A stretch of 64,000 nucleotides of DNA from a virus. The position numbers and the translations under genes were made by a program. The notes beneath the pieces were generated by a model, which saw only the letters and a list, made by a program, of their open reading frames with translations, did not search any database and had not been told where the DNA came from. The stretch is taken from the IMG/VR virus record IMGVR_UViG_3300025133_000024. One strand, given 5' to 3'. Position 1 is the stretch's first letter, and each line of letters opens with the position of its first letter. Positions 117 to 59,625 of this stretch are shown piece after piece.

Positions 117-950
117 TTATGAGTTTTTCTTTGCATCTGTAACAAAATCCTTCATTTGTTTGTAACCTTCATGAAAAATTTGAATTGCATCTTCTTCAGA
201 AGTTTTGGCTAAATTCATTCTATTATAACTACTATGAAAGTCCAACATGTGAATCGAATCAGGTATTTTTTCAACTTTATACTTAGAAACAATCCTATTA
301 TACATAATTCTTTGCACATAATCAATCAAAGAACTTTGAAACTTGGATGAACCAGTTTTTACAATTCTCATACCAATAATTGAAACATCATCTTCTTCAT
401 GTTCAAAAGCATTAAAAGGTAAATAATATGACCAACCTCCATCAACATAAAGTTCATCACCAATTGATGTTGGGTCAAAAATAAACGGAATTGAACATGA
501 TGCTCTTAATGCCTTTGCTGTTGATAATTCCGGTGTTAATGTAGATGAAAAAACAACATCATCATTCCTCTTCACGTTGGAGGCATAAAGGTAAGTTGGG
601 ATGGAAGCTTCTTTCAGTCTTTCTTTAAAAACGTTTTCAAAATGACTTTCAAGATTGTCTCCCTTTACAAATCCCCATCTTCTAAAGAAATGTAACAAAG
701 AATATCTAACAACACCTTTGTTGTTCACTGGAAGGGTTTGTTTTATTTTCTCTATTAAGGTTTCTTGTTCTCTTTTTATATCTGTTAATGACCATAGACA
801 TGATGCTATTGCTCCACCACTTGTTCCCGCTATTGAAACAATATCATAGTTTTCTTCTTCTAATGCCAATAACCCACCAACGTATAATGGATACAATGCT
901 CCAGAACCAGCCATTATAACTTTAATCTTTTTTTTTGGTGGGTTACTCAT
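117..950 (-). CDS. Patatin-like phospholipase
   Basis: Gly-rich oxyanion loop MAGSGALYP, nucleophile elbow GTSGG, ALRASCSIP, catalytic YVDGG. Confidence 0.92.
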   Translation of the reverse strand: MSNPPKKKIKVIMAGSGALYPLYVGGLLALEEENYDIVSIAGTSGGAIASCLWSLTDIKREQETLIEKIKQTLPVNNKGVVRYSLLHFFRRWGFVKGDNLESHFENVFKERLKEASIPTYLYASNVKRNDDVVFSSTLTPELSTAKALRASCSIPFIFDPTSIGDELYVDGGWSYYLPFNAFEHEEDDVSIIGMRIVKTGSSKFQSSLIDYVQRIMYNRIVSKYKVEKIPDSIHMLDFHSSYNRMNLAKTSEEDAIQIFHEGYKQMKDFVTDAKKNS

Positions 951-1143
951 AAGTTAAAAATTCTCTGATTTTATTATTACCTGTGTCTATGGGCTTACCT
1001 AGGCCACTATCATGTTGAATAAAAACGGTTGACCCAACATATAAAGCCTTTTTATCTTTTAATGGTAAAACTAACCAAAATCTATTCTTATTGCTTAAAG
1101 ATAAAGATACATCACCTTTCTGAAAATAGAAAAATTTACTCAT
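943..1143 (-). CDS. Small paralog-family protein (KKGD...Y-E mini-gene)
   Basis: FQKGDVSL N-terminus, FWLVL, ends FLTYE; overlaps neighbours. Confidence 0.7.
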   Translation of the reverse strand: MSKFFYFQKGDVSLSLSNKNRFWLVLPLKDKKALYVGSTVFIQHDSGLGKPIDTGNNKIREFLTYE

Positions 1144-1333
1144 ACCTTAACCACTCCCTTGTAGAACAAGAATAACGTCCTGATGCCATTTCGTAAACAA
1201 ATTGTATCTTGGTTTTATTTATTTTTGCAAATATAAAATTATCATCCTCTCTAGACAACAAAACCCAAAACACATTTTCTTCGTCTAAAGCCAAACATAT
1301 GTCACCTTTTCCAGGAACAAAATCATTACTCAT
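1136..1333 (-). CDS. Small paralog-family protein
   Basis: Start re-placed at MSNDFVPGKGDICL (ATG 1333 overlaps upstream stop); ends WLRYE. Confidence 0.65.
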   Translation of the reverse strand: MSNDFVPGKGDICLALDEENVFWVLLSREDDNFIFAKINKTKIQFVYEMASGRYSCSTREWLRYE

Positions 1334-1604
1334 TTTTATCACCATATGTGTGAATATCATATGTTTTGTTAAGATGAAGATGATTTTGTGTGTGAATATC
1401 ATATGTTTTGTTAAGATGAAGATGATTTTGATGGTCAACTCTATCATTAAACAGAATCTCTGTTTTTTTTCTTCTTGTTCCTATCCTTAACCAGCCATCT
1501 CCATTATTTTTAGTCTTAAGGCAAATCCAAAGAATAGAAGAAGCAGATGCAATAACCATTTCTCCGTGCTTCATATCATAATAATTATTCATTTTCTTCT
1601 CCAT
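1326..1604 (-). CDS. Small paralog-family protein with in-frame 14-aa duplication
   Basis: MKHGEMVI, ends TYGDKNE; QNHLHLNKTYDIHT occurs twice. Confidence 0.65.
   Translation of the reverse strand: MEKKMNNYYDMKHGEMVIASASSILWICLKTKNNGDGWLRIGTRRKKTEILFNDRVDHQNHLHLNKTYDIHTQNHLHLNKTYDIHTYGDKNE
1347..1430. repeat. Perfect 42-bp tandem duplication
   Basis: tgtgtgaatatcatatgttttgttaagatgaagatgattttg at 1347-1388 and 1389-1430. Confidence 0.95.
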
Positions 1605-1824
1605 TATAAGTTAACCACAATTCTTTTTCGCCAAACTCACCGGCGATTTCAACAATAAAGGGGTTTTCTATAGAGTGATAAAATTTCTCAGATATATACG
1701 AAAAAGGTGATTTAAAAACAAACCACCTGTGAGACTCCTTTTTCGTCTTTAAACAGAGGTGCAAAGTACCGTAAAAAAAATAAATGCTTCCATGGACCGA
1801 GAGTTTGGGTTTGTTTTCTTTCAT
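1585..1824 (-). CDS. Small paralog-family protein
   Basis: HGSIYFF, ends LTYNGEENE; coupled to flanking genes. Confidence 0.6.
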   Translation of the reverse strand: MKENKPKLSVHGSIYFFYGTLHLCLKTKKESHRWFVFKSPFSYISEKFYHSIENPFIVEIAGEFGEKELWLTYNGEENE

Positions 1825-2372
1825 TATTCCTCAAATAGTTTTTCTTGTTTTGATACTTTTTGTGCTCTAATGACATCTTTGGGAAAATTCAAATAACATC
1901 CTTGCCACCCGGCTCTTTTGGCTGTTGGTGGCAAAGGTTTTCTGGGAATCACAAAGGATGGCTTGACATTGGTAGAATGAATAAAGTTAATTTCTTTCAT
2001 GTTTTGATTTTTGTCATATGAAAGAATGAGAATGTGAGATGGTTTTGTTTGGATATGTTTTAGGGTTGTGTTATATTCTGCGGAAATAATCTTTTTTGGT
2101 TGGTTATCAGATTTCCTGAGGAAGGAGCCTTTTTTTATTTTCACTTGAAACTTTGATGAGCAGTGCTGACAAATGACATCCACACTTTTTGTATTAATTC
2201 TTGTTCTTTTTAAAGAGGAGTTATCACAATCGTCGCAACCTTTGTGATAACAAATGGGACAGGATAGATTTTTTTCGACCCATAGTTCTGCGGCTTCTCC
2301 GATAATCCTTGATTGTGTTTTCCAATGTGGATAATGAGTTTTGATTTCCTTTACGCATTTTTTTAAATCCAT
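1824..2372 (-). CDS. DpnI-like (Dam-replacing family) endonuclease, catalytic domain only
   Basis: SRIIGEAAELWV, Zn pairs CPIC and CQHC, D..QVK catalytic motif, IPRKPLPPTAKRAGWQGC closely matches DpnI RKPLAPTARRAGWIGC; no C-terminal winged helix. Confidence 0.85.
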   Translation of the reverse strand: MDLKKCVKEIKTHYPHWKTQSRIIGEAAELWVEKNLSCPICYHKGCDDCDNSSLKRTRINTKSVDVICQHCSSKFQVKIKKGSFLRKSDNQPKKIISAEYNTTLKHIQTKPSHILILSYDKNQNMKEINFIHSTNVKPSFVIPRKPLPPTAKRAGWQGCYLNFPKDVIRAQKVSKQEKLFEE

Positions 2373-2375
2373 TGT

Positions 2376-3002: not shown

Positions 3003-3469
3003 TGTTTATGCTCCTCTGTACGACTTTTCTTTGATGTTACAACAACTGCTCCTTTAAATTCACCATTTATCAACAAAGGGGCAGATTTTACTTCGAAAAC
3101 AACCTCGACATTATCTTTATCTAAATAAATGGTAGCATGGCTCTTTTTCTGTGTGGTTAAAGTCACAAACCCAGGAATTTCATTTTGTTTAAGAAGTTCT
3201 CCATCCAGATGCTTAAATTGATAATAATCAACCCATTTATCAAAAGTTAAGTCCTTTGGAACTTCAAATCCTAGCCTAATGGATTCTTCATTCTTATAAA
3301 GAATTTGTCCTTTTAAATCTAGAATAAAAATCCCAACAGGGGCACAATTTAAAGCAGATTGCAAAAAGAAGAAATTCTTCACTGTTTCTTCTTCTTTCTT
3401 GTTCAGTTCTCTTAACATATCTATGACAATACAATTATCCATCTTGCAAAATTCTTCCAAAATTATCAT
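2999..3469 (-). CDS. Stand-alone PAS-domain protein
   Basis: LQSALNCAPVGIFILDLKGQILYKN...G...FEVKSAPLLINGEFKGAVVV follows the PAS consensus. Confidence 0.8.
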   Translation of the reverse strand: MIILEEFCKMDNCIVIDMLRELNKKEEETVKNFFFLQSALNCAPVGIFILDLKGQILYKNEESIRLGFEVPKDLTFDKWVDYYQFKHLDGELLKQNEIPGFVTLTTQKKSHATIYLDKDNVEVVFEVKSAPLLINGEFKGAVVVTSKKSRTEEHKQ

Positions 3470-3662
3470 GTCGGACCAGCCAGAACTGACCTCGACACAT
3501 TACTTGCCAAAAAGAATCCTTCATAGATAATATAAGACCCCAGGACGGTTTGTCAAGTGTCAACATAGATAAATTTTTCTGTTTTTTCTTCAAGTTTGAA
3601 GAAAAATTTCTTAACTTAAAATTTTGAGGTAAATAAATTAAATCACCTTTTTTATACGACAT
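3435..3662 (-). CDS. Small paralog-family protein (SH3/KOW-like)
   Basis: MSYKKGDLIYLP, GLIL, WQV, W-V beta-strand pattern. Confidence 0.7.
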   Translation of the reverse strand: MSYKKGDLIYLPQNFKLRNFSSNLKKKQKNLSMLTLDKPSWGLILSMKDSFWQVMCRGQFWLVRHDNFGRILQDG

Positions 3663-9272: not shown

Positions 9273-10302
9273 TCTCTAGAAAACCTCCAGATGAAATCTT
9301 AACCCATTCCGCTTTTTCCTGAAGGTCTTTGATTGTTCTCACACCCGAATATGACAAACCAGACCTTAATTGCCTACCAATGTCATCTAATCTATCTTCT
9401 GTTCTTCCTTCGTACTTTACAAGACCAGAAACCCCCTCAAGACTTCTTACTTCACCTCTCCAATCAATTTGAGATTCAGCACTTGACATTCCTCTGTACT
9501 CTTTGTATTTCTTATCATCAATTGTTAAAATTCTTCCTGGTGAGCAATCGGTACATGCCAACATATAACCCAACATCACCATATCCGCACCAGCAGCCAA
9601 ACCCTTTACAATATCACCTGTAGTTTTAAAACCACCATCAGCCAAAAGATAACCACCAACTTCATCCTTAGCTCTTGCACAATCAATAATAGATTGAAAT
9701 GTTGGAATCCCATGTCCAGTGTTAACTCTTGTTGTACAAACCCCTGAACCTCCAATTCCAACCCTTACAATATCAACACCCCAAGAAACCAAATCCTTAT
9801 AAGCTTCATATGTTGCAACATTTCCTGCCATCAACATAATATCGTTTCCATAATGTGCCTTTAACTCTTCAACTGCATTCTGTACCTTGTTGTGATGACC
9901 ATGCGCTACATCAATACAAAATAGCATACAACCCTCAGAATATAATGCAGCCACCCTTTCCATATAATTCTTCTTATCGTTTTTTACCACACCAATAGCA
10001 CAACCAATTCTAACATCAGAGGTATGAGACCACAATCTCTTTTGTTCCTCAATTGTGTTATAACGGTGAATAATACCACCGGCACCATACTTTACAAGTT
10101 GTTCATTCATCTTCTCACTAATGACTCTATCCATTGGCGCTGCAATAATTGGCAAATTATATCCAATCCCCACAGAACCATTATACAAATCAACATTCAG
10201 AGAATTAAACAACTCTTCTCTACTACTAACATCACTATAATGAGGTTGTAACAACACATCATCAAAACATAACACTTCTTTGATCTTCATTTTTTTCTCC
10301 AT
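9256..10302 (-). CDS. IMP dehydrogenase / GMP reductase family (no CBS domains)
   Basis: FDDVLL, PMD, IDVAHGH, MAGNV, VGIGGSGVCTTR, ADGG, YRGM, EGV. Confidence 0.93.
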   Translation of the reverse strand: MEKKMKIKEVLCFDDVLLQPHYSDVSSREELFNSLNVDLYNGSVGIGYNLPIIAAPMDRVISEKMNEQLVKYGAGGIIHRYNTIEEQKRLWSHTSDVRIGCAIGVVKNDKKNYMERVAALYSEGCMLFCIDVAHGHHNKVQNAVEELKAHYGNDIMLMAGNVATYEAYKDLVSWGVDIVRVGIGGSGVCTTRVNTGHGIPTFQSIIDCARAKDEVGGYLLADGGFKTTGDIVKGLAAGADMVMLGYMLACTDCSPGRILTIDDKKYKEYRGMSSAESQIDWRGEVRSLEGVSGLVKYEGRTEDRLDDIGRQLRSGLSYSGVRTIKDLQEKAEWVKISSGGFLESGVRV

Positions 10303-10474
10303 AACTTATAATATTTTCTTCTTTAATAATAAATGTCCATTTTCCACTATCTTCCTCAATAGTTGTTTTCGTTCTTCCCCTCAAAACAATTCTTAAGGTT
10401 TTATCTTTATCAAGTTTAAGATATAAAAAACTCTTTGATCTTGATAATCCAAGTACTCCTTTGTTAAACTTCAT
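10262..10474 (-). CDS. Small paralog-family protein
   Basis: MKFNKGVLGL, near-terminal ISYGEKNED. Confidence 0.6.
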   Translation of the reverse strand: MKFNKGVLGLSRSKSFLYLKLDKDKTLRIVLRGRTKTTIEEDSGKWTFIIKEENIISYGEKNEDQRSVMF

Positions 10475-10563: not shown

Positions 10564-11088
10564 TTATATACCGCTGTGTCCGAAACCACCTTCTCCTCTT
10601 TTTGTTTCTTTTTTGCCAAAATTTTCTGAGAATTCTAAAACAACAGGTTCAACCTTTTTGAACGATACTTGAGCAATTCTATCACTACTATTCACACAAA
10701 AAGGTTCATCCCCCAAATTAACCAAAATAACCTTCCACTCTCCTTCATAACCTTCATCAATTGTTCCCGGTGTGTTCAAAACTGTCACACCGTTCTTTAT
10801 TGCCAACCCACTTCTTGGTCTTATTTGAGCCTCAAAACCCTCAGGTAAAAAACACTTCAACCCCAAAGGAATTAAAACACGACTCGAAGGTTCAATAACA
10901 ACAGACTCATCCAAACAAGCATATAAATCAAAACAAGCATCCAAATTATCAGACTTTGTTGGGATTCTCGCTTTATCATGAATCTTGTTAATTAACACTT
11001 TAGGAATATTCTCACAACCTTGACAATGGTCTTTTTTACGTTCATGATAACCAAATTTATTACACTTGCTGCATTTTTCTAATCTCAT
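10564..11088 (-). CDS. dut: Trimeric dUTPase with N-terminal Cys4 extension
   Basis: DLYA, RPRSGLA, GTIDEGYEGE, DRIAQ, RGEGGFGHSG. Confidence 0.95.
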   Translation of the reverse strand: MRLEKCSKCNKFGYHERKKDHCQGCENIPKVLINKIHDKARIPTKSDNLDACFDLYACLDESVVIEPSSRVLIPLGLKCFLPEGFEAQIRPRSGLAIKNGVTVLNTPGTIDEGYEGEWKVILVNLGDEPFCVNSSDRIAQVSFKKVEPVVLEFSENFGKKETKRGEGGFGHSGI

Positions 11089-11333
11089 TGTTTTTCTCCG
11101 CTTTTTAAAAATTTTTCTGATTCGAATAAAATTTCTCTAAACTTCCAACTTAAATCGACTCTTGAACTATAAAAGGTAAAAGAACTAAAAGCGCGAAAAT
11201 CTTGAAAATTGTTCTCTATTTCACTCAAAAGTAGATGAACTCTATTAGATTTAGAACAATAAATTAAATCTCCATATGAGAATTTAACTTTATCATTATT
11301 TTGACTCATTGTCAACCTCTTTTTTTTGTTCAT
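11085..11333 (-). CDS. Small paralog-family protein
   Basis: FSYGDLIY...HLLL pattern. Confidence 0.55.
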   Translation of the reverse strand: MNKKKRLTMSQNNDKVKFSYGDLIYCSKSNRVHLLLSEIENNFQDFRAFSSFTFYSSRVDLSWKFREILFESEKFLKSGEKQ

Positions 11334-11544: not shown

Positions 11545-11760
11545 CTATTCTTTTATTTCCAAAATACTCCAATCACATGCAAAATATCTCTTCCAGAATT
11601 TTGTGTCTAGTGGATGATGTGAACCGTAATTATATAATTCCAAAACCGAACAAAAGGGGCTATATACATAATCATCATTAACAGTATCCAAAATCAGATA
11701 AAAATGTTCATCTCCCAAAATAACATGACCCTTTTTAAACCTTTCTTTTCTTTTGCTCAT
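11545..11760 (-). CDS. Small paralog-family protein
   Basis: FKKGHVIL...FYLIL. Confidence 0.65.
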   Translation of the reverse strand: MSKRKERFKKGHVILGDEHFYLILDTVNDDYVYSPFCSVLELYNYGSHHPLDTKFWKRYFACDWSILEIKE

Positions 11761-11948
11761 ATTTTAACTCCATTTTTGAAAAAACTAAAGTTATTAATAA
11801 AAAAAGAAGATTCCCTTATTTCCTCGAAATATTGTTCTCTTCTCTCAAGTGAAAAAGTGGTTACAATGCCGTTTTTCGCTTGAAGTGCAAGTTCTAAACC
11901 AAAATCGCTATCATACAAGGACAACATACCTTTCTCAATTTTCTTCAC
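11757..11948 (-). CDS. Small paralog-family protein
   Basis: IEKGMLSLY, ends FFKNGVKI. Confidence 0.65.
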   Translation of the reverse strand: MKKIEKGMLSLYDSDFGLELALQAKNGIVTTFSLERREQYFEEIRESSFFINNFSFFKNGVKI

Positions 11949-12151
11949 ATTTCAACTCCGTTTTTGTAAAAAGATATTCCATTAGCAAAAACTTTACTCT
12001 TTTGTATATTATAAAAACCAACACGAAAATCATGCAAGTTTATATAAAACAAGAGAAAGGAATTTTCGCCACAAGAAGGTTTTATAAGCAGTTCAATTTT
12101 TTTATATAATGATTTTTCTGTGGATAACAAACCCTTTTCACATTTTCTCAT
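11945..12151 (-). CDS. Small paralog-family protein
   Basis: CEKGLLS, ends FYKNGVEM. Confidence 0.65.
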   Translation of the reverse strand: MRKCEKGLLSTEKSLYKKIELLIKPSCGENSFLLFYINLHDFRVGFYNIQKSKVFANGISFYKNGVEM

Positions 12152-12384
12152 ATTTTTATTTCCTTCCCATTCTCACAAAATGTAAATTCTTTGTGAAACA
12201 TGTCCTCTTTTCTAAAGGAATCAAGACCACTAGCTTTCTCATCACATGAAAACACTAACACTCTTTCTTCACCAACTTGAACAATAATTTCAACGCCGAA
12301 ATCAGGTCCAAGCAAAGTCATCATTCCAACTTTTAAGTTTCTCATTTTATTTTGCCTCTTTAAGTTTTTGCCAAAATTATTCAT
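12148..12384 (-). CDS. Small paralog-family protein
   Basis: LKVGMMTLL, ends FCENGKEIKI. Confidence 0.65.
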   Translation of the reverse strand: MNNFGKNLKRQNKMRNLKVGMMTLLGPDFGVEIIVQVGEERVLVFSCDEKASGLDSFRKEDMFHKEFTFCENGKEIKI

Positions 12385-15300: not shown

Positions 15301-15913
15301 ATTTAGCAAACACACCAGAAATACAAGTTGTTGTTGCAATCAACCCTTCACTATTCTCTTTCAATAATTGACAATCAATTCTTGGTTTGCGAAAAAAATA
15401 ATCTTCTCTTGTATCATGACTCTTCGAAACAAGATAAAATAAGTTCCTCAGACCAACTTCATTTTGGGCGATAACAAGAAAATGAGCATTGCCAGTTACT
15501 TTGTCTGTGATTTGCTCTCTGTTTTCTTCCTCAAAAACAACGCCCTTTTGCTTCTTTTCTAGTTGCTTCTTTCTCTTTTTGTCTTCAGAGGCTTTGTTGT
15601 ATTCTTCTCTCCAATCAATCACATCATCAATATAATAAAACTCGCAACCATATAGTGGTTTGATTTTCCTTCCTTCTTTTTCCATCTTCTTTGCATGAAG
15701 AACTTGATAAGACAATCCATTCATATTTCCATGGTCTGTTAACGCAATCGCATCCATCCCATTTTCATAAGCAAATTCCAAAAAGTCTCCTGGTTCACCC
15801 AAACCATCATATGGTGAACCAACAGATGAATGACCATGAAGATTAACAAACTTTAATTTAGAATCAATTCTTTTCATTACATTAACTTCCTTTAACAACC
15901 CTATTCGTAACAA
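12377..15913 (-). CDS. dnaE: DNA polymerase III alpha subunit (family C)
   Basis: PHP HGHS/TDHG/GCE, GRGSAAGS, PDIDVD, KFDILG, YGFSKNH, C-terminal OB-like region. Confidence 0.97.
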   Translation of the reverse strand: MLRIGLLKEVNVMKRIDSKLKFVNLHGHSSVGSPYDGLGEPGDFLEFAYENGMDAIALTDHGNMNGLSYQVLHAKKMEKEGRKIKPLYGCEFYYIDDVIDWREEYNKASEDKKRKKQLEKKQKGVVFEEENREQITDKVTGNAHFLVIAQNEVGLRNLFYLVSKSHDTREDYFFRKPRIDCQLLKENSEGLIATTTCISGVFAKLVWMNPEATQEELLKMMQPYLQKFIDIFGKDRFFGELQWNAIKEQHVLNQCIIELCKRNGLKLISTVDYHYARPELWRARETYKRLGFLGRDKKPEWISKEIPETIDGMDYELYPKNGDQMFEDYRKYSERMGFKYDDDVIIRSIENTHRIAHNMVESFYPNTDIKLPTFVVPDGVDANEMLREKCFVKLEEKGFGQKYKERLEEELEVLKNNNFAEYFLTKDRIVQEIRKTQLMGGGRGSAAGSLIAYLLDITEIDPLKWGTMFSRFLRSDSDSMPDIDVDCEEPARIKEHLVEEWGQERVALISNMTTLQLKSIVKDVSRLHEIPFSEVNPVTGKMIREATTKAKKKHGIKAGVYVPTWEEVLEYSDSLKKFLKKYPHVQTYIKSLIGQKKASSVHAGGLLVSENLFETMPLIRSKGKMQTPWCEGQNVRHLEPFGFIKFDILGIASLRMIRDCISHILRRHYDIENPTFEDVKHFYDEFLHPDVIDHNDQRVYEHVYHKGNFAGTFQFTESGVQKFSQQVKPISIMEGSAVTSTYRPGPMDGNVPDMYLEGKYKEYKRKYYNDIHKKITEDTYSFLIFQEQISSLVSGLSKYLSEEDGHTIRKLFTKKEKGGARIDTSSITDPFIKQLLQRDLGLETAKKLKEYYERFEKGCLENNMKIDEIRELWENIAAFAGYGFSKNHAIPYFFLSFQCAWLYTYYPVEWVAAFLDKEPEDKKEQAINVAKRANMDIEDVDINLSNMFWDIIDEKTVIQPLTGIKGLGEKAVQEILSHRPFYTIEDLLFNERISYRRLNKRSLDVLTRSGTLNCLMDARFEHMRHFWLSVVDNRPGNQEELLENIEKFKYEDDFTTQQKIDFKVELSGLFPFSTVITKDVEKRLLKSNIPSLTHYDNEHGVVWCIAREVTPRKTAKGKTYWIVNCIDSYGGQEDVKIWGIHPSDTLDLNRPLMIYLEYCPKWGYSTRTLRSNMKYLDE

Positions 15914-16101
15914 GAGATTTTTACATGAAATGCTCTTGCAGTGTGAGCGTATTTTTGAACATAAATTTTGTTATTGTCAAGAGCAATATTCAACACTTGA
16001 GAATCCCCCAAACTCAAAAGAAGTGCGGAAGCTGATAGCAATATTGTACCTTTTTTCAAATCCTTAACACGTTTACTGAAGGTCTTAAACTTACGCTTCA
16101 T
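15901..16101 (-). CDS. Small paralog-family protein
   Basis: VKDLKKGTILL; sister of 16320..16532. Confidence 0.65.
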   Translation of the reverse strand: MKRKFKTFSKRVKDLKKGTILLSASALLLSLGDSQVLNIALDNNKIYVQKYAHTARAFHVKISCYE

Positions 16102-16120
16102 TATATCTCCTTGCTATTGA

Positions 16121-16339
16121 CTACCGATATACACTACACAAACAAACGGGAATTATCCAATCCGGGCCTAAAGAAACTAGTGAGTGTCGGTTTGTTACAA
16201 AACCCATATAAAAATAAAGATCTTTACTGATGTTTAAATAAAATGAATTATTATAGAAAAACATTGTACCCTTTTGAACTTCCTTGTTACGAAGATTAAG
16301 TTTCGAATCCTCCATAATTCTATTCATAAACACCAACAT
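16121..16339 (-). CDS. Small paralog-family protein
   Basis: VQKGTMFFY. Confidence 0.6.
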   Translation of the reverse strand: MLVFMNRIMEDSKLNLRNKEVQKGTMFFYNNSFYLNISKDLYFYMGFVTNRHSLVSLGPDWIIPVCLCSVYR

Positions 16340-16532
16340 TTGCCCGATACAAAATTGTATTTTTGGGATATTTTTTAATATAGGAAATTCCTAAATCGGT
16401 ATTGATACGGAAAGTTATCCCCTCACCTGATTCTAGAATCAGGTGAAAATAATATGTTGCCGTCATAATTGAACCTTTTTTCAAATCTCTGATATAACCA
16501 CTGTGTTTCTTAAACTCATGCTTCATTATCAT
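16320..16532 (-). CDS. Small paralog-family protein
   Basis: IRDLKKGSIMT, ends GVYE. Confidence 0.65.
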   Translation of the reverse strand: MIMKHEFKKHSGYIRDLKKGSIMTATYYFHLILESGEGITFRINTDLGISYIKKYPKNTILYRANVGVYE

Positions 16533-16783
16533 TCCTTATCTTCGCTATATGTCAAGACGTTATAACTTGGAATTTCTTCTCTAAGTCTACTTTTTTTATC
16601 CCTATTATAATTGTCAGCACCTTCTTCATAAAATGTCAAAAAATAATTTGTATTTATTTCCATAAGATCAACAAGTAAGCCAGTTACTTCACCATTTTTT
16701 TCTCCAATAACAAGCCAAAAATGATTTTCATCTACATCACCTTCATAACAAGTTACGTCACCTTTTTCATATTTTTCTTTCAT
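16529..16783 (-). CDS. Small paralog-family protein
   Basis: YEKGDVTCYEG, FWLVI, ends VLTYSEDKE. Confidence 0.7.
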   Translation of the reverse strand: MKEKYEKGDVTCYEGDVDENHFWLVIGEKNGEVTGLLVDLMEINTNYFLTFYEEGADNYNRDKKSRLREEIPSYNVLTYSEDKE

Positions 16784-17719: not shown

Positions 17720-18580
17720 TTACATATCCAACTCTTTTAATGTTTCTAAAAATAACCTCGAATCACCCAATACCAACTCACCCCAATCACTACTCAGATA
17801 AAAAACATTTTTATTTTGAATTTTAAAGGACTCTAAGGGCACCACAACCCTCGCTTGATGCCTAAGGTTAATAAGTTTTAAATCTTCCTCCACCTCTTTG
17901 TTCGGTGTGTTAAACGAAGCATCAACATAATCTTTTAATTTGTTTTGAAGAAAAATACGGAGAGGGGTTGGTGAGTAAGAGGGTGTTTTTAGTTTTTGGT
18001 TTGAAACCCAGGATTTGCAATAAATTATGTTGTTTTTTTTATATATTGTGTTGGGGTATTGAGTTTGTTGATATATCACATCACATATTAATTCTCTATC
18101 AGGTTGAATAATAAAGAAATCTTCAATTATATTCTGTGTGTGTTTTATCTTATATTGCAAACCCTTTAATAATCTTGGATTAAATATAAACAACTTTTCA
18201 AACCTAATTCTTGAAAAATGCTTCATGTTGTGCTGTATTTTAATTACATCATCTTCTTCTATACGCATGACATCAATTGTGTCCAAAAAAGGTAATAATC
18301 CCTTCCAGGACATAAGAAACAATATTTTTTCAATTATTGAATTTTGTTTTATTCCGATAAATGAGTCTTCTTTGTTTGTCACTATCTTGCTTAAAATGTT
18401 TTGCTCTCCAATAAACTTTAAGCAAAAAGAAGAATCGAAGTGTTTGAAATTATGGGGTCTATTAAAATTTTGATATAAAAATGGATAGCCATGAGTATAG
18501 GCATAAATCAGAGAATGAATGTTATTTCCTATAACAACATTCTCGTATTCATACTCATGACCATCCAACTTTTCACTCAT
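17720..18580 (-). CDS. Hypothetical protein with Rossmann-like N-terminus
   Basis: YENVVIGNNIHSLIYA resembles a degenerate FAD-binding beta-alpha start. Confidence 0.45.
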   Translation of the reverse strand: MSEKLDGHEYEYENVVIGNNIHSLIYAYTHGYPFLYQNFNRPHNFKHFDSSFCLKFIGEQNILSKIVTNKEDSFIGIKQNSIIEKILFLMSWKGLLPFLDTIDVMRIEEDDVIKIQHNMKHFSRIRFEKLFIFNPRLLKGLQYKIKHTQNIIEDFFIIQPDRELICDVIYQQTQYPNTIYKKNNIIYCKSWVSNQKLKTPSYSPTPLRIFLQNKLKDYVDASFNTPNKEVEEDLKLINLRHQARVVVPLESFKIQNKNVFYLSSDWGELVLGDSRLFLETLKELDM

Positions 18581-18785
18581 AATTTAAAATTTCCAGTTTT
18601 TGTCTTTGCCAAATCGCCTTATTCTGTCTATAAGAATTACCCCTGAACCTTCCTAAACTAATATTTTCATCAACAACCTTCAAGTAACGAGGACAAGAGC
18701 CACCTTCCATCATCAAAATAAAAACACCACAAGTAGAATGTTTACCAAAAGCCATGAGACCCTTATCTTGTAATTTTTTATTCAT
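18573..18785 (-). CDS. Small paralog-family protein
   Basis: Start re-placed at MNKKLQDKGLMAF; ends ILNYE; sister of 18983..19186. Confidence 0.6.
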   Translation of the reverse strand: MNKKLQDKGLMAFGKHSTCGVFILMMEGGSCPRYLKVVDENISLGRFRGNSYRQNKAIWQRQKLEILNYE

Positions 18786-19008
18786 GTTCTTTCCCATTAA
18801 AAGAATATTGAAGTTTCTTTTCTTTTCTGTTTGCGTATAATATATAAGTTTTATTACCAAAAATAGAAAATATTCGATAATTGTAATCTCGAATCGGACT
18901 TTTCTTTCTACCCAGATACAAATCAACAATCCTATGGCTTCCATTCGCACTCACAGAGCCATATGTGCAATCTTTTTTAAAATCAGTTTTCATATTGCAA
19001 AATCTCAT
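18778..19008 (-). CDS. Small paralog-family protein
   Basis: FKKDCTYG, ends LQYSFNGKEHE. Confidence 0.55.
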   Translation of the reverse strand: MRFCNMKTDFKKDCTYGSVSANGSHRIVDLYLGRKKSPIRDYNYRIFSIFGNKTYILYANRKEKKLQYSFNGKEHE

Positions 19009-19186
19009 ACTTAAACCTCTTCCAGTGATTTTTCGTAACAGTTAATGACGAACTGTTTACATGGCACCTAACATAAGATGATGTAATTTCTAAAAAAAGA
19101 GGAGATTGTTCCTTTTCCTCAATAATTAATCGAAGTCCTGTAGGTGTTAGAACCAAAAGACCTTTGTTTTGCAAATTTTCATTCAT
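18983..19186 (-). CDS. Small paralog-family protein
   Basis: LQNKGLLVL, ends ILQYEN. Confidence 0.65.
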   Translation of the reverse strand: MNENLQNKGLLVLTPTGLRLIIEEKEQSPLFLEITSSYVRCHVNSSSLTVTKNHWKRFKYEILQYEN

Positions 19187-19916
19187 AAGGTTTTCTTAGA
19201 TTTCCTTGTTCATCTATCAATTCATAAGCAGTCACAGTATGTTCAAATTCTTTTAAGTTAATAACGCACTTGAGCATCTTATGAGCAATGTCTCTAATTT
19301 CCTTCTGGGAGTGGGTTGAATATCGCAATCTCACAAAATTCATGAAACTTCTCCAATTGAAACTAACATCGCAAATTAATTGCTTTGAATATGGTAACTT
19401 ATAACGAGAGGATTCTTTGGCTCTTTGTCTTGCTTGTTTTTTATTAAGACCTGTATCAATATAATATTTTGTTAATTCTTTTGTTAATCTATGATACTCT
19501 TCCAAACAATACTCACAAAATTCAACATGTTTTTTAATTTCCTTTTCAGGCCAATCTAAAGGAACATAAAATTTGTCGTCTGAGAGTTCTTTATAACGAG
19601 CACTAGAACTATTAGTTGAAATTCCGATACGATGTTTCAGTAGATGAATGTGAGAGGCAATGTCTGTTTCAATTTGGAAATGTAATAGAGACTTTTCAAA
19701 TGGTGTCTCATGTTTGTGTGATGCAAGATACTTGAGTAACTGAGCGGGGGTGTTTTTCTTTGTTTTTATAGTTTCCTCAAAAAGTTTCTCGACTCTTTCA
19801 TTCACTTGTTTTGGCAAATCTATCTCTAGTTCACTACTAGTTGAACACCATGCAGATAAACAATGTGCCTTGTCTCCTCCATAGTGCCCAATTAGTTCCA
19901 CATTATTATCATTCAT
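19179..19916 (-). CDS. thyX: Flavin-dependent thymidylate synthase
   Basis: HETPFE, HLLKHRIGISTNSSSARY (ThyX motif variant), NWRSFMNFVRLR, HSQKEIR. Confidence 0.92.
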   Translation of the reverse strand: MNDNNVELIGHYGGDKAHCLSAWCSTSSELEIDLPKQVNERVEKLFEETIKTKKNTPAQLLKYLASHKHETPFEKSLLHFQIETDIASHIHLLKHRIGISTNSSSARYKELSDDKFYVPLDWPEKEIKKHVEFCEYCLEEYHRLTKELTKYYIDTGLNKKQARQRAKESSRYKLPYSKQLICDVSFNWRSFMNFVRLRYSTHSQKEIRDIAHKMLKCVINLKEFEHTVTAYELIDEQGNLRKPYE

Positions 19917-20167
19917 TGTTCTTCTCCGTTAATGTAATATTTTTTTACACCCGATTCCCATAATCTAGATATATATACAAGATTTAACAAGTGTTGGATA
20001 TAGGCAGGATTATTTATATACACTGTTTTACTAAATTTTGTGACAACCAATGAAACCTGTTTATGACCGTCATCACTCAATATCAATTCAATTCCATCAA
20101 AATGTTCAAACAAAACACCTTTGTAAGATTCACTCTTCATACTCAAATATTCCTGCAAAACTATCAT
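19913..20167 (-). CDS. Small paralog-family protein
   Basis: YKGVLF, ends YYINGEEQ. Confidence 0.6.
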   Translation of the reverse strand: MIVLQEYLSMKSESYKGVLFEHFDGIELILSDDGHKQVSLVVTKFSKTVYINNPAYIQHLLNLVYISRLWESGVKKYYINGEEQ

Positions 20168-20357
20168 CTTCTTTCCATGCGTCTTTTAGAACATCAATGT
20201 TTCTTGTTCGCTTACCAATTGTAACTTCTCCTGTTTTATGAAAAAAATGAAGATATTTCTTGTTCGGCAGAGACAAAATAAATTGTGTTGTTGTTCCGTA
20301 TTTTCTTTCTGTGAGGAAAAGAACCATTAAACCTTTGCTCATTTTTTTATCATCCAT
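20130..20357 (-). CDS. Small paralog-family protein
   Basis: MSKGLMVLF, ends IFEYEE. Confidence 0.6.
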   Translation of the reverse strand: MDDKKMSKGLMVLFLTERKYGTTTQFILSLPNKKYLHFFHKTGEVTIGKRTRNIDVLKDAWKEDDSFAGIFEYEE

Positions 20358-20548
20358 TCTTGGTGTGACTGAGGGATATATAAAACTTCGACTGTATCTT
20401 CTTCTATAATCTCAACACAATTTGGTATGTCTTTCCAAATAACAATAGACTTGTTATTATGTTTACACAAGACCTTTCCAACAGTCTCATGAACCATATC
20501 AAATAAAATGTCATCTTCTTTTAAAACTCTATGGTCAAAGTTATTCAT
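20339..20548 (-). CDS. Small SH3-like hypothetical protein
   Basis: LKEDDILFD...VGKVL...IVIW. Confidence 0.6.
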   Translation of the reverse strand: MNNFDHRVLKEDDILFDMVHETVGKVLCKHNNKSIVIWKDIPNCVEIIEEDTVEVLYIPQSHQEWMIKK

Positions 20549-20747
20549 TTTGTTCTAAAACTCCTTTTGAGTATAATCTTAATTCACTTAAATTGGCATT
20601 CCTAACTCTTATTATTCTAGAATTTCCTGTAATAGTGGAAACCCAAAATAAATTCGTCAAATCTGGCTGCTTTTTATCATAAATCAATATCCAGAAAGAA
20701 CGGCCATTGTTATTAATTAACAATTTTCCATGATTTTCAATCTTCAC
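20541..20747 (-). CDS. Small paralog-family protein
   Basis: HGKLLI, FWILI, LYSKGVLEQNE. Confidence 0.55.
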   Translation of the reverse strand: MKIENHGKLLINNNGRSFWILIYDKKQPDLTNLFWVSTITGNSRIIRVRNANLSELRLYSKGVLEQNE

Positions 20748-20775
20748 CTATTTCTCCATCTTTCTCTCATGTTGT

Positions 20776-20991
20776 TTATCTATAAGCCAATATTTGACTC
20801 TCTCTTACAGAATCGAACCAATGCCTTATGCTCTCTCCTTCATTACACCAAATTTCACTTCTATCAAAAACATTTCCATGTATCATTATATCGAGAAAAT
20901 ACGGGGATAAAGAGCTATTATCATGCCCGATATATAATAACAATGAATTTCTATACAACAAAGTTGAACCATAGCGTTTATCTTTATTCAC
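20776..20991 (-). CDS. Small paralog-family protein
   Basis: YGSTLLY, LLLYI, ends ILAYR. Confidence 0.55.
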   Translation of the reverse strand: MNKDKRYGSTLLYRNSLLLYIGHDNSSLSPYFLDIMIHGNVFDRSEIWCNEGESIRHWFDSVRESQILAYR

Positions 20992-21364: not shown

Positions 21365-21542
21365 ATATTAAGAATTGTGCCCAATTATATTCTTCCCATT
21401 TTTCAATCGTTTGTTTTCCCAATTGAGTTTTCCCAATATCAATACCGTTGGAACTTATGTATAACTTCGTATACCATGTTTTGTTTCTTTTTAAGACAAG
21501 TACAAAAGAATTTCTCACAAGAATCATATCACCCTTTTTCAT
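21342..21542 (-). CDS. Small paralog-family protein
   Basis: MKKGDMILV, ends LIYGEKDEV. Confidence 0.7.
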   Translation of the reverse strand: MKKGDMILVRNSFVLVLKRNKTWYTKLYISSNGIDIGKTQLGKQTIEKWEEYNWAQFLIYGEKDEV

Positions 21543-22209: not shown

Positions 22210-22235
22210 CACTTTCCTCGTATTTCAATAATTAC

Positions 22236-38816: not shown

Positions 38817-38967
38817 CTAGTTTTACACAATTTTCAATTATGTATCCAATGTACGAATCAATTCCAATATATTTTCCATTCGTTATCACAATATAAGAAT
38901 CTTTGTCTAAAAGTAGATAAATTATGTTATAAGGACCTTCGTAAAAATACAAATCACCCTTTTTCAT
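38800..38967 (-). CDS. Small paralog-family protein
   Basis: Start re-placed at MKKGDLYFYEG, IYLLL. Confidence 0.65.
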   Translation of the reverse strand: MKKGDLYFYEGPYNIIYLLLDKDSYIVITNGKYIGIDSYIGYIIENCVKLDAPIN

Positions 38968-39217
38968 TATTTTCTCCGTATGATAGTCTGTTAAAGTTAT
39001 TCCTAATTCCAAAAGATGTATTAGAAATGTACAGTCCTCTTCCATTGAAACATAAATACTTTTCCTCTCCTGTTTTTAAAATCAATGGAATATGGATAAT
39101 GCTTTTACTTAAATAAAGAACACCTTTTTTATCTGAGGAGGGGAGGAGTGGCATTTGAAACCCTAATTTGATTATTTGAAGGAAAGATAGAAAGGGAGGA
39201 AAATCGCGTATGAACAT
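38954..39217 (-). CDS. Small paralog-family protein
   Basis: DKKGVLYL, ends LSYGENNEKG. Confidence 0.6.
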   Translation of the reverse strand: MFIRDFPPFLSFLQIIKLGFQMPLLPSSDKKGVLYLSKSIIHIPLILKTGEEKYLCFNGRGLYISNTSFGIRNNFNRLSYGENNEKG

Positions 39218-57984: not shown

Positions 57985-58019
57985 AATTCATCCTGTTATC
58001 ATATTGATAAACACATTGC

Positions 58020-59312
58020 TTATCCCATTGTCATATACATTGGCATTTTTGTTAAGGCTTGATTTATATGTTCCGCCTCTTGTGCCTGAATCTCAGCGAT
58101 TTTTGCATATGTTAATTCATCAAGAATTGTTTTCAATTCTTCTTTAAGTTTTTGCTGCTCTTCTTTTCCTTGCGAAGCCAACTCACCATGATTTAATGTC
58201 ACAGATTCTCCAGGAATTGGCAAAGTTTGGAACTTTCCTCTATTCTGAGAAAGAATGATTTTACAAGTTGCTAAACAATATCTCCTAATCCAATGCTTAC
58301 CCATCGAATTTATACTATTATAAGAAATGTTAGCAAATGGCAGTGTATTCACATTATTTATTCCATCAACACCCTGAGAAAAACCCTCACTCTCCTCCCA
58401 AGGATTCTCATCAACAATAAACTCAACCCACAACTTAGTGAAACTTCTATCTGGAACCGGAAAAACCCTTATTTTATTATTCTCTATTTTATAAGAATAA
58501 TGAGAGATTCTTGTTCTTATCGCATCTTCAAATGCAGCAGCCTGAGCCTTGTTTTGCCAAACAGGAATAAGTTGCCATGTTGAGTCATCAGCATATTGAC
58601 CATATGTTGATAAATTGCCAATAGATGATAATCCACCATAATAACCATAAAATCTCCAAACTGCTCTCGGAGATAAATAATATACTTTTTTCACTCTTAT
58701 TTTCTTGTTCTTTATTTTTCCTGAATATAGCTCACCTGAAGACAAAGACGATGTATACAGCAATGCTTGCAAATCATAACTTTGTTTGCCACCTTGTAGA
58801 GCTATAGACCCTGAATATAAAGTCTCATTTCCTCCAATTCCAACTTGAGTCCCAACACCATCTGCATATCTATTAACATATCCAAATTGCATTTTGGGAA
58901 ACTTTAAAGCAACATTTGAACCTGACAATGTACCTGATAATACACTACCAGAAAGATATTGTCCTTGATGGTCGAATGAACCTGTTTCTTTTCCTAACAA
59001 AGTTGGCAGAACTGACTTGGCTTGATGCAAGTTTACAATATATGAGTATTCCAAACATGAATCTTCATATGCTGAATATACATCCTCAGGCGTTAATTCA
59101 ATATCCAAGACTGCTCCACCCAACATTCTGTAAGTGAACGCAACTTGACCAACTGCACCGGAAATGAATTCGTTTTTTTCTGCAAGGGGAACTGAGGAAT
59201 TGACGTAGGTTCCGTAAGGTAAGACACTCTCTGTAACACCGGTATATGAACCAGTAGATGTTAAAACAATTCGACTTGTGACTGTTACAGGAGTTAAAGA
59301 TGGAAGGGCCAT
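58020..59312 (-). CDS. Neck / head-tail adaptor protein (gp13-like)
   Basis: LGG.VLDIELT, WIRRY..A..K..L...RGKF..LP.PG..V.LN..EL. Confidence 0.75.
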   Translation of the reverse strand: MALPSLTPVTVTSRIVLTSTGSYTGVTESVLPYGTYVNSSVPLAEKNEFISGAVGQVAFTYRMLGGAVLDIELTPEDVYSAYEDSCLEYSYIVNLHQAKSVLPTLLGKETGSFDHQGQYLSGSVLSGTLSGSNVALKFPKMQFGYVNRYADGVGTQVGIGGNETLYSGSIALQGGKQSYDLQALLYTSSLSSGELYSGKIKNKKIRVKKVYYLSPRAVWRFYGYYGGLSSIGNLSTYGQYADDSTWQLIPVWQNKAQAAAFEDAIRTRISHYSYKIENNKIRVFPVPDRSFTKLWVEFIVDENPWEESEGFSQGVDGINNVNTLPFANISYNSINSMGKHWIRRYCLATCKIILSQNRGKFQTLPIPGESVTLNHGELASQGKEEQQKLKEELKTILDELTYAKIAEIQAQEAEHINQALTKMPMYMTMG

Positions 59313-59340
59313 TCACTGTTTCCTCAATAGCAATTTACAA

Positions 59341-59350
59341 GTAAATAGTT
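59341..59350 (-). promoter_or_regulatory. Putative late promoter motif
   Basis: AACTATTTAC about 29 nt upstream of neck start. Confidence 0.5.
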
Positions 59351-59397
59351 ACTGAGAAAGGAAGGCTATTTGTGGGACACTTTATGAGGAATTTTTC

Positions 59398-59625
59398 TTA
59401 TTTTTTTTGCTCTTCGTATTTCATGAATTCATAAATGGAAGTATAACAATCAACGTTATATGAAAATCTTATGACATTCATTGTTTTGAAGTCAAAGACC
59501 TTATACAACCATTTGCTTTTCTTTTTATCTTTTGTGTTGATATTGTCTAGGACCATATAAGTCCTTGTTTCATCATGTGATAAAAAAACATCACCTGCTT
59601 TCATTTTGTTCTTCTTTTTATTCAT
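59398..59625 (-). CDS. Small paralog-family protein
   Basis: MKAGDVFLS, YMVL, ends FMKYEEQKK. Confidence 0.65.
   Translation of the reverse strand: MNKKKNKMKAGDVFLSHDETRTYMVLDNINTKDKKKSKWLYKVFDFKTMNVIRFSYNVDCYTSIYEFMKYEEQKK

Follow-up and report, generated by a model that had tools for sequence, protein, structure and literature searches.

Small genes interleaved with core genes

The DNA analyzed here (the window, a stretch of 64,000 nt) comes from an uncultured ~180-kb marine far-T4-type myovirus that is known only as near-identical metagenome contigs. Its minus strand carries genes for small basic proteins of 60–85 aa, standing singly or in arrays next to core genes, including those for DnaE, DnaB, RNR, an exonuclease, and RecA (Table 1). 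An earlier note, made from the letters alone, had described these small genes as one paralogous family placed between nearly all core genes. Placement at core-gene junctions was supported by comparison with G002, a complete 185.5-kb relative: core genes that lie 6–60 nt apart in that collinear genome are split here by arrays of 2–6 members, located at junctions of conserved replication and nucleotide-metabolism genes that directly abut in the relative.

Judged from sequence, the members are real coding genes. The arrays are tiled by open reading frames (ORFs) of one strand only, and public gene callers also call the member ORFs as genes. In the closest paralog pairs, dN/dS ranged from 0.24 to 0.85 and was below 1 in every pair tested (least saturated pair: dS 0.77, omega 0.36), with no sign of positive selection in these pairs. 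The family accounts for ~12% of the window DNA.

Table 1. Family members, weaker candidates, remnants, and flanking features in the window (LOO, leave-one-out; census, six-frame profile census)
Coordinates	Strand	Feature	Evidence or remark
943..1143	-	member, 66 aa	LOO E=1.5e-6; census E=8e-13
1136..1333	-	member, ~65 aa (longest ORF to 1447)	pairwise E=3.5e-5 to 943-1143; census E=2e-12
1326..1604	-	member, 92 aa, with perfect internal 42-nt tandem duplication (repeat D15, 1347-1430)	non-seed E=2.8e-4
1585..1824	-	member, 79 aa, divergent N-motif HGS	non-seed census E=4e-5
3435..3662	-	weak candidate, N-motif YKKGDLIYL only	E=0.12
10262..10474	-	member, 70 aa	LOO E=2.4e-5
11085..11333	-	member, 74-82 aa	LOO E=6e-5
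11545..12384	-	four-member array with ATGA overlaps, directly downstream of DnaE polymerase: 11545-11760, 11757-11948, 11945-12151, 12148-12384	LOO and pairwise E=7e-5 to 9e-9
15901..16783	-	four-member array directly upstream of polymerase: 15901-16101, 16121-16327, 16320-16532, 16529-16783	LOO E=6e-7 to 4e-3; pairwise E=1.7e-7
18573..19186	-	array with members 18573-18797, 18983-19186	pairwise E=1e-5; LOO E=5.7e-7
18778..19008	-	weak candidate between the two preceding members	E=0.019
19913..20991	-	array with one solid member, 20130-20357	LOO E=2e-3
19913-20167, 20339-20548, 20541-20747, 20776-20991	-	weak candidates of the same array	motifs by eye, E>0.05
21342..21542	-	member, 66 aa, query of second AF2 model	LOO E=6.7e-5
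21810..22031	-	member (longest ORF to 22118)	non-seed census E=3.6e-4
22081..22212	-	truncated member of 43 codons, reduced to its N-terminal KKGDM strand	
22199..22231	-	orphan remnant of a C-terminus (LLKYEESDEG-stop) with its junction	matches 28438/28233 junction, ~27/30 nt identical
26735..26908	-	member, 57 aa, without G-E tail, no abutting downstream gene	LOO E=1.5e-3
27111..27353	-	weak candidate, N-motif FDKGDVV	E=0.12
28233..28623	-	two members, 28233-28460 and 28438-28623, conserved junction	census E=7e-4 and 1e-11
29026..29136	-	36-aa ORF, putative truncated member (FEVGTKVKI)	gene in public annotation
35490..36329	-	flanking core gene, divergent TubZ/tubulin-like	ESM Atlas feature score 0.97, TM 0.86 to PF00091 clusters; ortholog in G002
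36326..36777	-	gene pair B: 36562-36777, 36326-36565	pairwise E=4e-11, 5e-8 to pair A
36540..36587		48-nt gene-gene junction repeat	46/48 nt identical to 37235-37282
36779..36880	-	orphan 3' half of a lost member, without start codon, ending in THTLTYRK-stop	aligns with C-terminus of 37447-37650
36873..37064	-	member, 63-67 aa, no G-E tail	LOO E=3e-3
37054..37650	-	members 37447-37650, 37257-37457, 37054-37260 (last two, pair A)	LOO E=6e-9 to 2e-4
37650..38816	-	flanking core gene, 388 aa	directly adjoins tubulin-like gene in G002
38800..39154	-	two members, 38954-39154 and 38800-38967	LOO E=1.3e-5; flanking core genes abut in G002
59398..59625	-	isolated member, 75 aa, beside Gp23 capsid region	LOO E=1.4e-3

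Copy number and family membership

A six-frame stop-to-stop profile census of the window recovered 31 minus-strand members at E<0.001, and among 644 plus-strand control frames none did better than E=0.027. Together with ~7 weaker candidates and three remnants, the total comes to 35–40 in the window, as the earlier note had estimated. At least 16 further members lie close by outside the window, so the whole genome holds at least 47 copies; nine of these outside members, absent from the seed, gave profile E-values of 1e-8 to 3e-3. A strict iterative HMM converged on 12 members and no decoys, leave-one-out searches ranked 24 of 36 candidates above ~1,500 decoys, and five additional candidates were linked by significant pairwise phmmer matches. 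The N-terminal motif (KG[DSTNV] followed by a hydrophobic residue, within the first 45 aa) was found in 22 of 59 small minus-strand ORFs, compared with 25 of 1,180 shuffles and 1 of 183 plus-strand ORFs; the C-terminal motif, h-x-[YF]-[GENDS]-[EDNK], was found in 14 of the same 59 against 33 of 1,180 shuffles.

With both termini masked, 22 of 36 candidates still ranked in the top 10% of 1,291 decoys (3.6 expected), a signal that is weak but not random. Because family-wide similarity is weak after masking, the most divergent "members" are tied in mainly through short terminal motifs, length, and context. The profile signal sits mostly in the termini, and the G-E/D tail is RBS-related, both of which would suit a collection of unrelated small ORFs made alike by start-proximal Lys/Gly codons and RBS-imposed tails. 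This reading is largely refuted, and we consider it highly improbable. The distance of the KGD motif from the start varies between 2 and 23 residues, which argues against a start-context artifact; the interior-only ranks are strongly skewed, out-of-sample members reach the E-values given above, and the motifs are missing from non-family small genes and from G002 (2/126). An aromatic residue lies within the last 10 residues in 35 of 38 members, with or without a following gene, and both the KGD strand and this C-terminal aromatic belong to the family as such. The Gly codon of the N-terminal motif is GGT in 25 of 29 cases, compared with 49% genome-wide. By these sequence comparisons, the members belong to one paralogous family, whose copies share 30–35% identity. 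With some 50 diverged copies of one small basic all-beta protein, it ranks among the largest expansions of a gene family noted in any phage.

The nearest relatives have collinear gene order and polymerases at most 53% identical, and they lack the family. No member was found in G002 with the same pipeline, which does recover unseen members from the source genome. A search of the family profile against 1.84e9 representatives matched only the window's own proteins, and none was found in 586 kb of loci with polymerases 45–48% identical. The expansion is lineage-specific, with the family present in no other genome searched. Strain-level contigs, themselves 99.99–100% identical, contained no recombinants or copy-number variants; the relatives compared were either contigs of this kind or genomes with polymerases at most 53% identical, with no intermediates.

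Translational coupling and shared gene ends

The earlier note had read the C-terminal Y-G-E codons as the Shine-Dalgarno (SD) sequence of the next gene. The G-E/D tail does serve as the SD site of the next gene, but only about 12 of 38 members carry the full Y-G-E/D tail; the x-N-E ending of the earlier note is rarer still. In 30 of 38 members, a downstream ATG abuts or overlaps the gene, at -26 to +15 nt from the stop, and GGAGA precedes the ATG by 7 nt at 36326 and 36562. In non-family genes, too, ATGA, TAATG, and -8 overlaps are usual, with GGAG lying in the preceding gene, and the RBS-in-tail arrangement is a genome-wide coupling style and not special to the family. The overlap between a member's stop and the tubulin-like gene's ATG was found as described (TATGGAGAAAACGAATGA). 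The ATG of the patatin-like gene (117–950) is likewise supplied by the terminal T-ATG-AG-TAA of the member at 943–1143.

The description of gene ends as alike at the DNA level, with divergent middles, proved accurate. Of the member pairs, 3.2% had 24-nt windows with at least 18 of 24 positions identical at their starts and 6.7% at their ends, compared with 0.2% in their middles; for non-family genes the values were 0.7% at starts and 0.2% at ends. The exact 19-mer shared by 22201–22219 and 28440–28458 was confirmed, with none expected by chance. With the 48-nt junction repeat, these are homologous repeats present at unit boundaries. At the junction shared by pairs A and B, 12 of 13 codons are identical, against 22 of 38 elsewhere, so that conservation extends even to synonymous sites. 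Selection on the coupling signals alone can suffice for such junction conservation.

Of the 47 members, 23 had their nearest paralog no more than 1.5 kb away, compared with 3.65 on average in permutations (p<0.0005); all strong pairings fell within 750 nt. Remnants of a three-gene duplication were detected. The three truncated or orphan pieces noted earlier (22081–22209, 29026–29136, and near 36780–36872) are all present, the second only as a possible member. The sequences indicate that the family expanded through local duplication, tandem or segmental, after which the copies diverged deeply and some of them decayed, in agreement with the proposed birth-and-death expansion.

Predicted fold

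An AF2 model of the member at 37257–37469 was all-beta with five strands (pLDDT 72, pTM 0.54), and a second, of another member (Table 1), had six short strands and a helix (pLDDT 70, pTM 0.45). Structural matches to the first model were weak (Z at most 5.6, against a background of 7–8 stated for the aligner) and were mostly SH3, KOW, Tudor, FeoA, and Sm barrels; the top ones were the TraI SH3-like domain, Spt5 KOW, FeoA, and Tudor, and CarD and ribosomal SH3-like proteins were also among them. Foldseek gave E-values of at least 0.6 for this model. The best structural match to the second model had Z 3.6, and the SH3-class matches were not reproduced. None of 36 members matched Pfam SH3-clan families, including KOW, and no Pfam family was matched by more than one member; a PDB profile search returned nothing below E=0.49, and no PHROG match was found among 10 members scanned (best E 0.05). 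Small SH3-like beta-barrels (SH3, KOW of NusG/Spt5/L24, Tudor, FeoA, Sm) resemble the members in size (~60–70 aa) and, in one model, in their five strands, and the N-terminal K-x-G-D-hydrophobic first strand is like the opening strand of KOW/SH3 domains; they differ in that the members have no sequence-profile match, the Z-scores are low, and the second model disagrees. The SH3/KOW-like scaffold of the earlier note is thus retained as a tentative, model-based suggestion.

Possible functions of the expansion

We hold it somewhat more probable than otherwise that the locus represents a lineage-specific expansion of one small all-beta gene (possibly SH3-like) that grew by duplication into coupled arrays at core-gene junctions and forms a putative repertoire of binding modules. 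Each unit boundary would run from the last beta-strand with its aromatic, through the GGAG in the tail and the stop/start overlap, to the KKGD strand that opens the following copy, and boundaries would stay alike at the DNA level because the translation-coupling signals reside there. The 20–50 nt of boundary homology is plausibly a substrate for unequal recombination, by which whole units could be added or removed with the operon intact. In the weakest step of the scheme, small binding modules with conserved core strands and variable loops would be produced together with the replication genes and would target host or phage macromolecules.

A rather unlikely but substantial alternative is a nucleic-acid-binding role: as small basic proteins of the kind of Sso7d, Cren7, KOW, or Sm, the members would coat or organize phage DNA or RNA or serve as accessory subunits in replication or transcription, with copy number providing dosage or sequence-specific variants. 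Their median pI (9.1, with other small proteins at 6.3) fits nucleic-acid binding no less than protein binding; they are located among the DnaE, DnaB, RNR, exonuclease, and RecA genes, KOW/Spt5, CarD, Sm, and ribosomal SH3-like proteins are among the weak structural matches, and a DNA-binding or transcription-factor role has been proposed for the zinc ribbons of phage G (Iyer et al. 2021, PMC7824862). Against this, Pfam and PDB searches gave no sequence match to known nucleic-acid-binding families, the basic charge is centered on Lys-rich N-termini favored by AT-rich start regions, and the relatives replicate without a single copy.

Two further readings would assign the proteins themselves little importance. 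As selfish or near-neutral cassettes, which we regard as quite unlikely, the genes would multiply through recombination between their conserved coding ends, and, since each unit brings its own coupling signals, insertion would be cheap for the phage; the encoded proteins would serve no needed function. Ends conserved over drifting middles, truncated and orphan pieces, and arrays at sites empty in relatives that lack the family altogether are all as such cassettes would leave them, but length, strand pattern, and open frames have been retained across ~50 deeply diverged copies, dN/dS stays below 1, and the share of the window they occupy is a heavy load for a packaging-limited genome. If instead chains of coupled short ORFs acted as translational relays or spacers setting the reinitiation that reaches the downstream core gene, only the junctions would matter, in keeping with their synonymous-site conservation and the frequent abutting or overlapping ATG. 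This is improbable: the constant length and conserved internal hydrophobic strands would not be needed, some members have no abutting downstream gene, and the same core genes are coupled directly in relatives.

Comparison with known systems

In T4-type phages, small ORFs of the hyperplastic regions are shuffled as modules by promoter-early stem-loop (PeSL) cassettes (Arbiol et al. 2010, PMC2839356; Comeau et al. 2014, PMC4122927). The present arrays share with them the T4-type architecture, small non-core genes between conserved core blocks, and short boundary repeats as potential recombination points at which units are gained or lost with neighbors unharmed. In contrast, the boundary here lies in coding sequence (3' end, SD, overlap, and next 5' end) where a PeSL cassette has an intergenic promoter and terminator, a single paralogous family takes the place of unrelated ORFans as cargo, and recombination is inferred from repeats. 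Between 10000 and 29500, neither PeSL-type sigma-70-like promoters (96 promoter-like sites vs 79±9 in shuffles) nor PeSL-type terminators (4 terminator-like sites vs 8±3) were enriched. It is conceivable, if unlikely, that the junction is a coding counterpart of the PeSL cassette, through which ~50 mini-barrel binders expand and contract by unequal recombination and present variable loops to host defense or takeover factors. If true, the phage would encode a germline "binder library" housed in its replication operons.

The ~35 zinc-ribbon proteins of Bacillus phage G are a lineage-specific expansion that was called "unprecedented" (Iyer et al. 2021, PMC7824862). In both cases a single phage lineage has multiplied one tiny domain dozens of times, and its role is only guessed at. 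The members described here differ in being all-beta (predicted) without a Cys/His metal site, in their higher copy number in a genome not half as large, and in being interleaved with core replication genes. A virus gene family growing through local tandem duplication also recalls the gene "accordions" of poxviruses, in which a host-range gene is amplified in tandem and then diverges; there the copies are of recent origin, almost identical, and linked to a known host antagonist, whereas the present ones are ancient.

The small-gene family and its size

A KG[DSTNV]-hydrophobic motif (the N-motif) lay within the first 45 residues of 22 of the 59 small minus-strand ORFs in the window, against 25 of 1,180 shuffles and 1 of 183 plus-strand ORFs, and the C-terminal pattern occurred in 14 of the 59 versus 33 of 1,180 shuffles. 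Neighbouring copies were linked by pairwise phmmer (E=1e-5 to 4e-11), a strict iterative HMM converged on 12 members without a single decoy, and 24 of 36 hand-picked candidates ranked first over about 1,500 decoys when left out of the profile. A six-frame census of stop-to-stop frames, run from a broader seed, recovered 31 minus-strand frames at E<0.001, whereas the best of 644 plus-strand frames reached only E=0.027. It also picked up 1326-1604 and 38800-38967, which were absent from the first ORF selection. An earlier note, made from the sequence alone, had proposed one paralogous family of about 35-40 copies. This estimate held, with 31 solid and about 7 weak members in the window, which amount to about 37 of roughly 100 genes and 12% of the DNA.

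Directly beyond the window, a further 17.6 kb of the source contig contained 16 matching frames, of which 9 were absent from every seed and scored E=1e-8 to 3e-3; we regard these never-seeded matches as the strongest validation of the family. No member was found in the 10 kb of the structural module that was checked. Over the roughly 82 kb searched, the family therefore has at least 47 members; about one-sixth of the phage's genes belong to it, and the approximately 50 copies in this one genome are 15-60% identical.

One competing explanation for the census was a motif artefact, in which unrelated small ORFs only look alike. When the termini were masked (everything through the first residue after the KG motif, and everything from the third residue ahead of the terminal aromatic), only 5 of 36 members ranked first; against 1,291 decoys, 12 placed within the top 1% and 22 within the top 10%, the expectation for the latter being 3.6. 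Similarity beyond the termini, which the earlier note had made decisive, is thus non-random in the interior but weak across the family. The middles are very variable, and their length differs by 20-45 residues. The distance between the start and the N-motif ranges from 2 to 23 residues, so the motif is not an effect of start-codon context, and 35 of 38 members have an aromatic residue in the last ten, with or without a following gene. On these grounds, the family is held together by its first beta-hairpin (K-G-D/S/T, alternating hydrophobics, h-W/Y-L-h-L), its last strand (h-L-x-Y) and a common length, and the artefact is largely excluded.

Duplication, decay and selection

For 23 of 47 members the nearest paralog was no more than 1.5 kb away (permutation mean 3.65, maximum 16 in 2,000 trials, p<0.0005), and all pairings above 18 bits fell within 750 nt. 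The block 37447/37257/37054 was copied whole, and the duplicate retains 36562/36326 together with a startless remnant at 36779-36880 that ends THTLTYRK-stop. Upstream of the truncated ORF 22081-22212 we found an orphan tail, LLKYEESDEG-stop, with the same sequence as the end of 28438-28623. The truncated ORF at 22081 and the orphan 3′ half described in the earlier note were both present, and these loci show that copies duplicate, diverge and decay.

The copies are old, with identities of 30-35% and dS mostly above 1. In all eight to ten closest pairs dN/dS was 0.24-0.85, most of the dS values being saturated; the least saturated pair had dS 0.77 and omega 0.36. No positive selection was found by dN/dS, every value in these closest, mostly saturated pairs being below 1, which indicates that selection on whole genes is purifying rather than diversifying. 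Recent internal duplications occur in two members: 1326-1604 has a perfect 42-nt tandem repeat at 1347-1430, and 36326-36565 a doubled SDPEVHLFL segment.

Insertion between core genes

We compared the array sites with G002, a complete 185.5-kb relative that is collinear with the window. Three successive core genes, 39229-40251, 37650-38816 and the tubulin-like gene 35490-36329, have orthologs in G002 with gaps of 8 and 6 nt between them, whereas the same two junctions in the window hold two members, and six members plus the remnant. Likewise, the exonuclease/DnaB junction measures 27 nt in G002 and holds 2-3 units in the window, and the junction between the ribonucleotide reductase (RNR) gene and an 89-aa gene measures 60 nt in G002 and holds 2 units here. 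The placement of arrays between core genes, already noticed from the window, was borne out at junctions of 6-60 nt in G002 that hold 2-6 units here. Because the same core genes abut in this collinear genome, the comparison offers direct evidence that the arrays are insertions between otherwise tightly abutted core genes.

The same ORF and HMM pipeline, which does pick up unseen members in the source genome, gave no match in G002, where the N-motif occurred in only 2 of 126 small ORFs and paralog clusters had at most 3 members. Across 33 IMG/VR loci (586 kb, polymerases 45-48% identical) there were no members, the best score was 7 bits and no small ORF had both motifs. A profile search of nine related records, run without a positive control, gave no match. 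A whole-database profile search of about 1.8 billion representative proteins returned 21 hits, all of them the window's own proteins; as this search needed about 37 bits and true out-of-seed members score 8-33 bits, distant relatives could be missed. Together with the clustering of paralogs, these results establish a lineage-specific expansion by local duplication, with insertion at core-gene junctions.

A three-member 'KKGDLV...' cluster of G002 was considered as a possible ancestor and rejected (hhalign probability 4%, only the 8-residue motif aligned, no Pfam hit). Three other small proteins of G002 (71214-71489, 126300-126662 and 180021-180227; L045-L051) share the N-terminal leader MK(I/L)TK(T/S)RL(K/M)(E/K)IIKEE. 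Strain-level contigs were 99.99-100% identical and therefore uninformative on array turnover; their sole notable difference was the repeat content of a tail protein. This tail-region protein, 44244-47108 (954 aa vs 907 aa between strain contigs), contains four copies of a 141/195-nt repeat at 44467-45138.

Shared gene ends and translational coupling

Boundaries between members are conserved at the DNA level. The 19-mer reported as common to 22201-22219 and 28440-28458 was exact, with none expected by chance, and over a longer stretch of 30 nt about 27 positions agree. The junction 36540-36587 shares 46 of its 48 nt with 37235-37282, inside gene pairs (36562-36777 plus 36326-36565; 37257-37457 plus 37054-37260) whose identity to one another is otherwise 54-57%; at this junction the same codon is used for 12 of 13 identical amino acids versus 22 of 38 elsewhere. 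Of the 435 solid-member pairs compared, 3.2% shared a 24-nt window with 18 or more identities at their starts and 6.7% did so at their ends, versus 0.2% in their middles, consistent with the earlier description of shared ends and divergent middles, while the same comparison of non-family genes gave 0.7% for starts and 0.2% for ends.

The C-terminal Y-G-E codons had been read as the Shine-Dalgarno sequence of the next gene. At 36326 this reading is exact, since the GGAGA in TAT GGA GAA AAC GAA TGA stands 7 nt ahead of a stop-overlapping ATG, and in three members the final Y-E codons (T-ATG-AG-TAA) provide the ATG of the next gene. The tail-motif glycine is GGA in 7 of 8 tails versus 32% genome-wide, and the N-motif glycine is GGT in 25 of 29 members versus 49% genome-wide (p=3e-5). 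Members are translationally coupled, but the x-G-E/D tail is present in only about 12 of 38. It accompanied an abutting downstream gene in 11 of 30 cases versus 1 of 8 without one, a non-significant trend (Fisher p=0.39). Non-family genes have the same kinds of ending (N-G-E, E-G-E), and canonical -1/-4/-8 overlaps follow 13 of 36 family and 14 of 61 non-family genes; the arrangement is therefore a general style of this genome.

Predicted fold and charge

Sequence searches of Pfam, PHROG and PDB gave no match for any member, and neither Pfam nor PHROGs includes the family. An AlphaFold2 model of 37257-37469 (23-sequence alignment) was a five-strand all-beta structure (pLDDT 72, pTM 0.54) with weak structural matches (Z ≤5.6, Foldseek E ≥0.6), mostly SH3-like barrels: Spt5 KOW, FeoA, Tudor, SH3, CarD, Sm and ribosomal L14e/L21e. 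Foldseek against BFVD and PDB gave no match at E≤0.001, the BFVD hits being limited to small proteins of phages without characterisation. The second model, built for 21342-21542 from 36 sequences (pLDDT 70, pTM 0.45), had no match above Z 3.6. The ESM Atlas single-sequence model of one member was poor (pLDDT 0.48), and its neighbours DUF1653, EFP_N and R67 DHFR are leads only. The SH3/KOW-like scaffold suggested earlier thus agrees with the weak matches of the first model but was not reproduced with the second, and we hold it as plausible but not established. Median pI was 9.1 for members versus 6.3 for other small proteins, which argues against DNA-mimic-type inhibitors.

Possible mechanism and precedents

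Selection on coupling signals may have conserved the gene boundaries, which would also supply homology for unequal recombination. The weakest step in this account is that the proteins may form a repertoire of small binding modules. They could instead be basic nucleic-acid-binding or replisome-accessory proteins, a function that their charge leaves open. They could also be selfish near-neutral cassettes, a reading to be weighed with both the decayed copies and the dN/dS values below 1, or translational relays.

As described equivalents, our literature search found only the papers on PeSL cassettes of T4-type phages (PMC2839356, PMC4122927) and the zinc-ribbon expansion of phage G (PMC7824862). 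PeSL cassettes are intergenic, whereas the junctions here would be their coding-sequence analogue. The phage G family, termed unprecedented, has about 35 copies and provides published precedent for a phage lineage in which a tiny domain has multiplied; the present family has at least 47 in a genome less than half the size. Its notable points are copy number, interleaving with core replication genes, and junction repeats embedded in coding sequence. It exemplifies how a phage can gain many genes at the junctions of tightly coupled core genes and leave the latter undisturbed, and is a clean natural data set on the divergence of a minimal beta scaffold. Should the copies turn out to act as binders or counter-defence factors, they would supply new small binding scaffolds and a model of how repertoires evolve in viruses that infect marine hosts, probably Bacteroidota.

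The source phage and other features of the window

All genes in the 64-kb window are on the minus strand, and GC is about 33%. Public contigs with identical proteins are 161-188 kb long and add a T4-type portal, baseplate, prohead protease, chaperonin, ClpP and ribosomal protein S21. The phage is present in samples JGI 3300008050 and 3300025066, ENA ERZ27249009 and ERZ27249139, SRR5701579 and SRR5467136.

Large genes in the window
Feature	Position	Strand
DnaE-type polymerase	12377-15913	minus
Class II ribonucleotide reductase with intein (Intein_splicing)	22312-25293	minus
DnaB	25306-26691	minus
Tail sheath	48860-51832	minus
Gp23-type capsid protein	61214-62980	minus

The nearest isolates by capsid protein were Flavobacterium phage immuto (44%), Microcystis phage Mel-JY01 and Rhodothermus phage RM378. 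An INPHARED nucleotide search with the array region found no phage matching at the DNA level, and the closest non-self match of the polymerase among 5.8 billion clustered proteins was 53% identical. The source is therefore an uncultured marine 'far-T4' myovirus whose intermediate relatives are absent from the record; its hosts are probably marine Bacteroidota, with a member of the Flavobacteriia as the probable host.

The 279-aa product of 35490-36329 had no sequence match in Pfam, PHROG or PDB but carries a GGSGDISG-type signature. ESM Atlas ties it to viral Tubulin/FtsZ and TubZ-like clusters (feature score 0.97; TM 0.86 to PF00091 clusters), and a 34% identical ortholog occupies the same position in G002; it is a very divergent phage tubulin in a far-T4 lineage. 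Outside the window, the T4-type portal gene (L039 1-2995) carries an intein (Intein_splicing and HNH_3), and the ribosomal protein S21 gene (PF01165; L039 5922-6125) lies among the head genes of the structural module.

The best sigma-70-like promoter of the 10-29.5 kb region, TTGACA-17-TATATT (11/12) at 22255-22283, falls within the 99-nt gap that follows the RNR gene, immediately upstream of both the orphan tail and the truncated member. Three adjacent tRNA genes (Asn-GTT, Gly-TCC, Thr-TGT) are found at 33648-33870 on the coding strand. One end of the 430-aa protein 58020-59312 recurs as the 66-aa ORF 57270-57470 (phmmer E=7e-27); a 155-nt DNA repeat (91%) connects 57263-57470 with 58013-59312, and both proteins end MPM(H/Y)MTMG. 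Finally, the 334-aa gene 43224-44228 contains about 10 copies of the 9-nt tandem repeat GTTTGATTT at 43758-43847.
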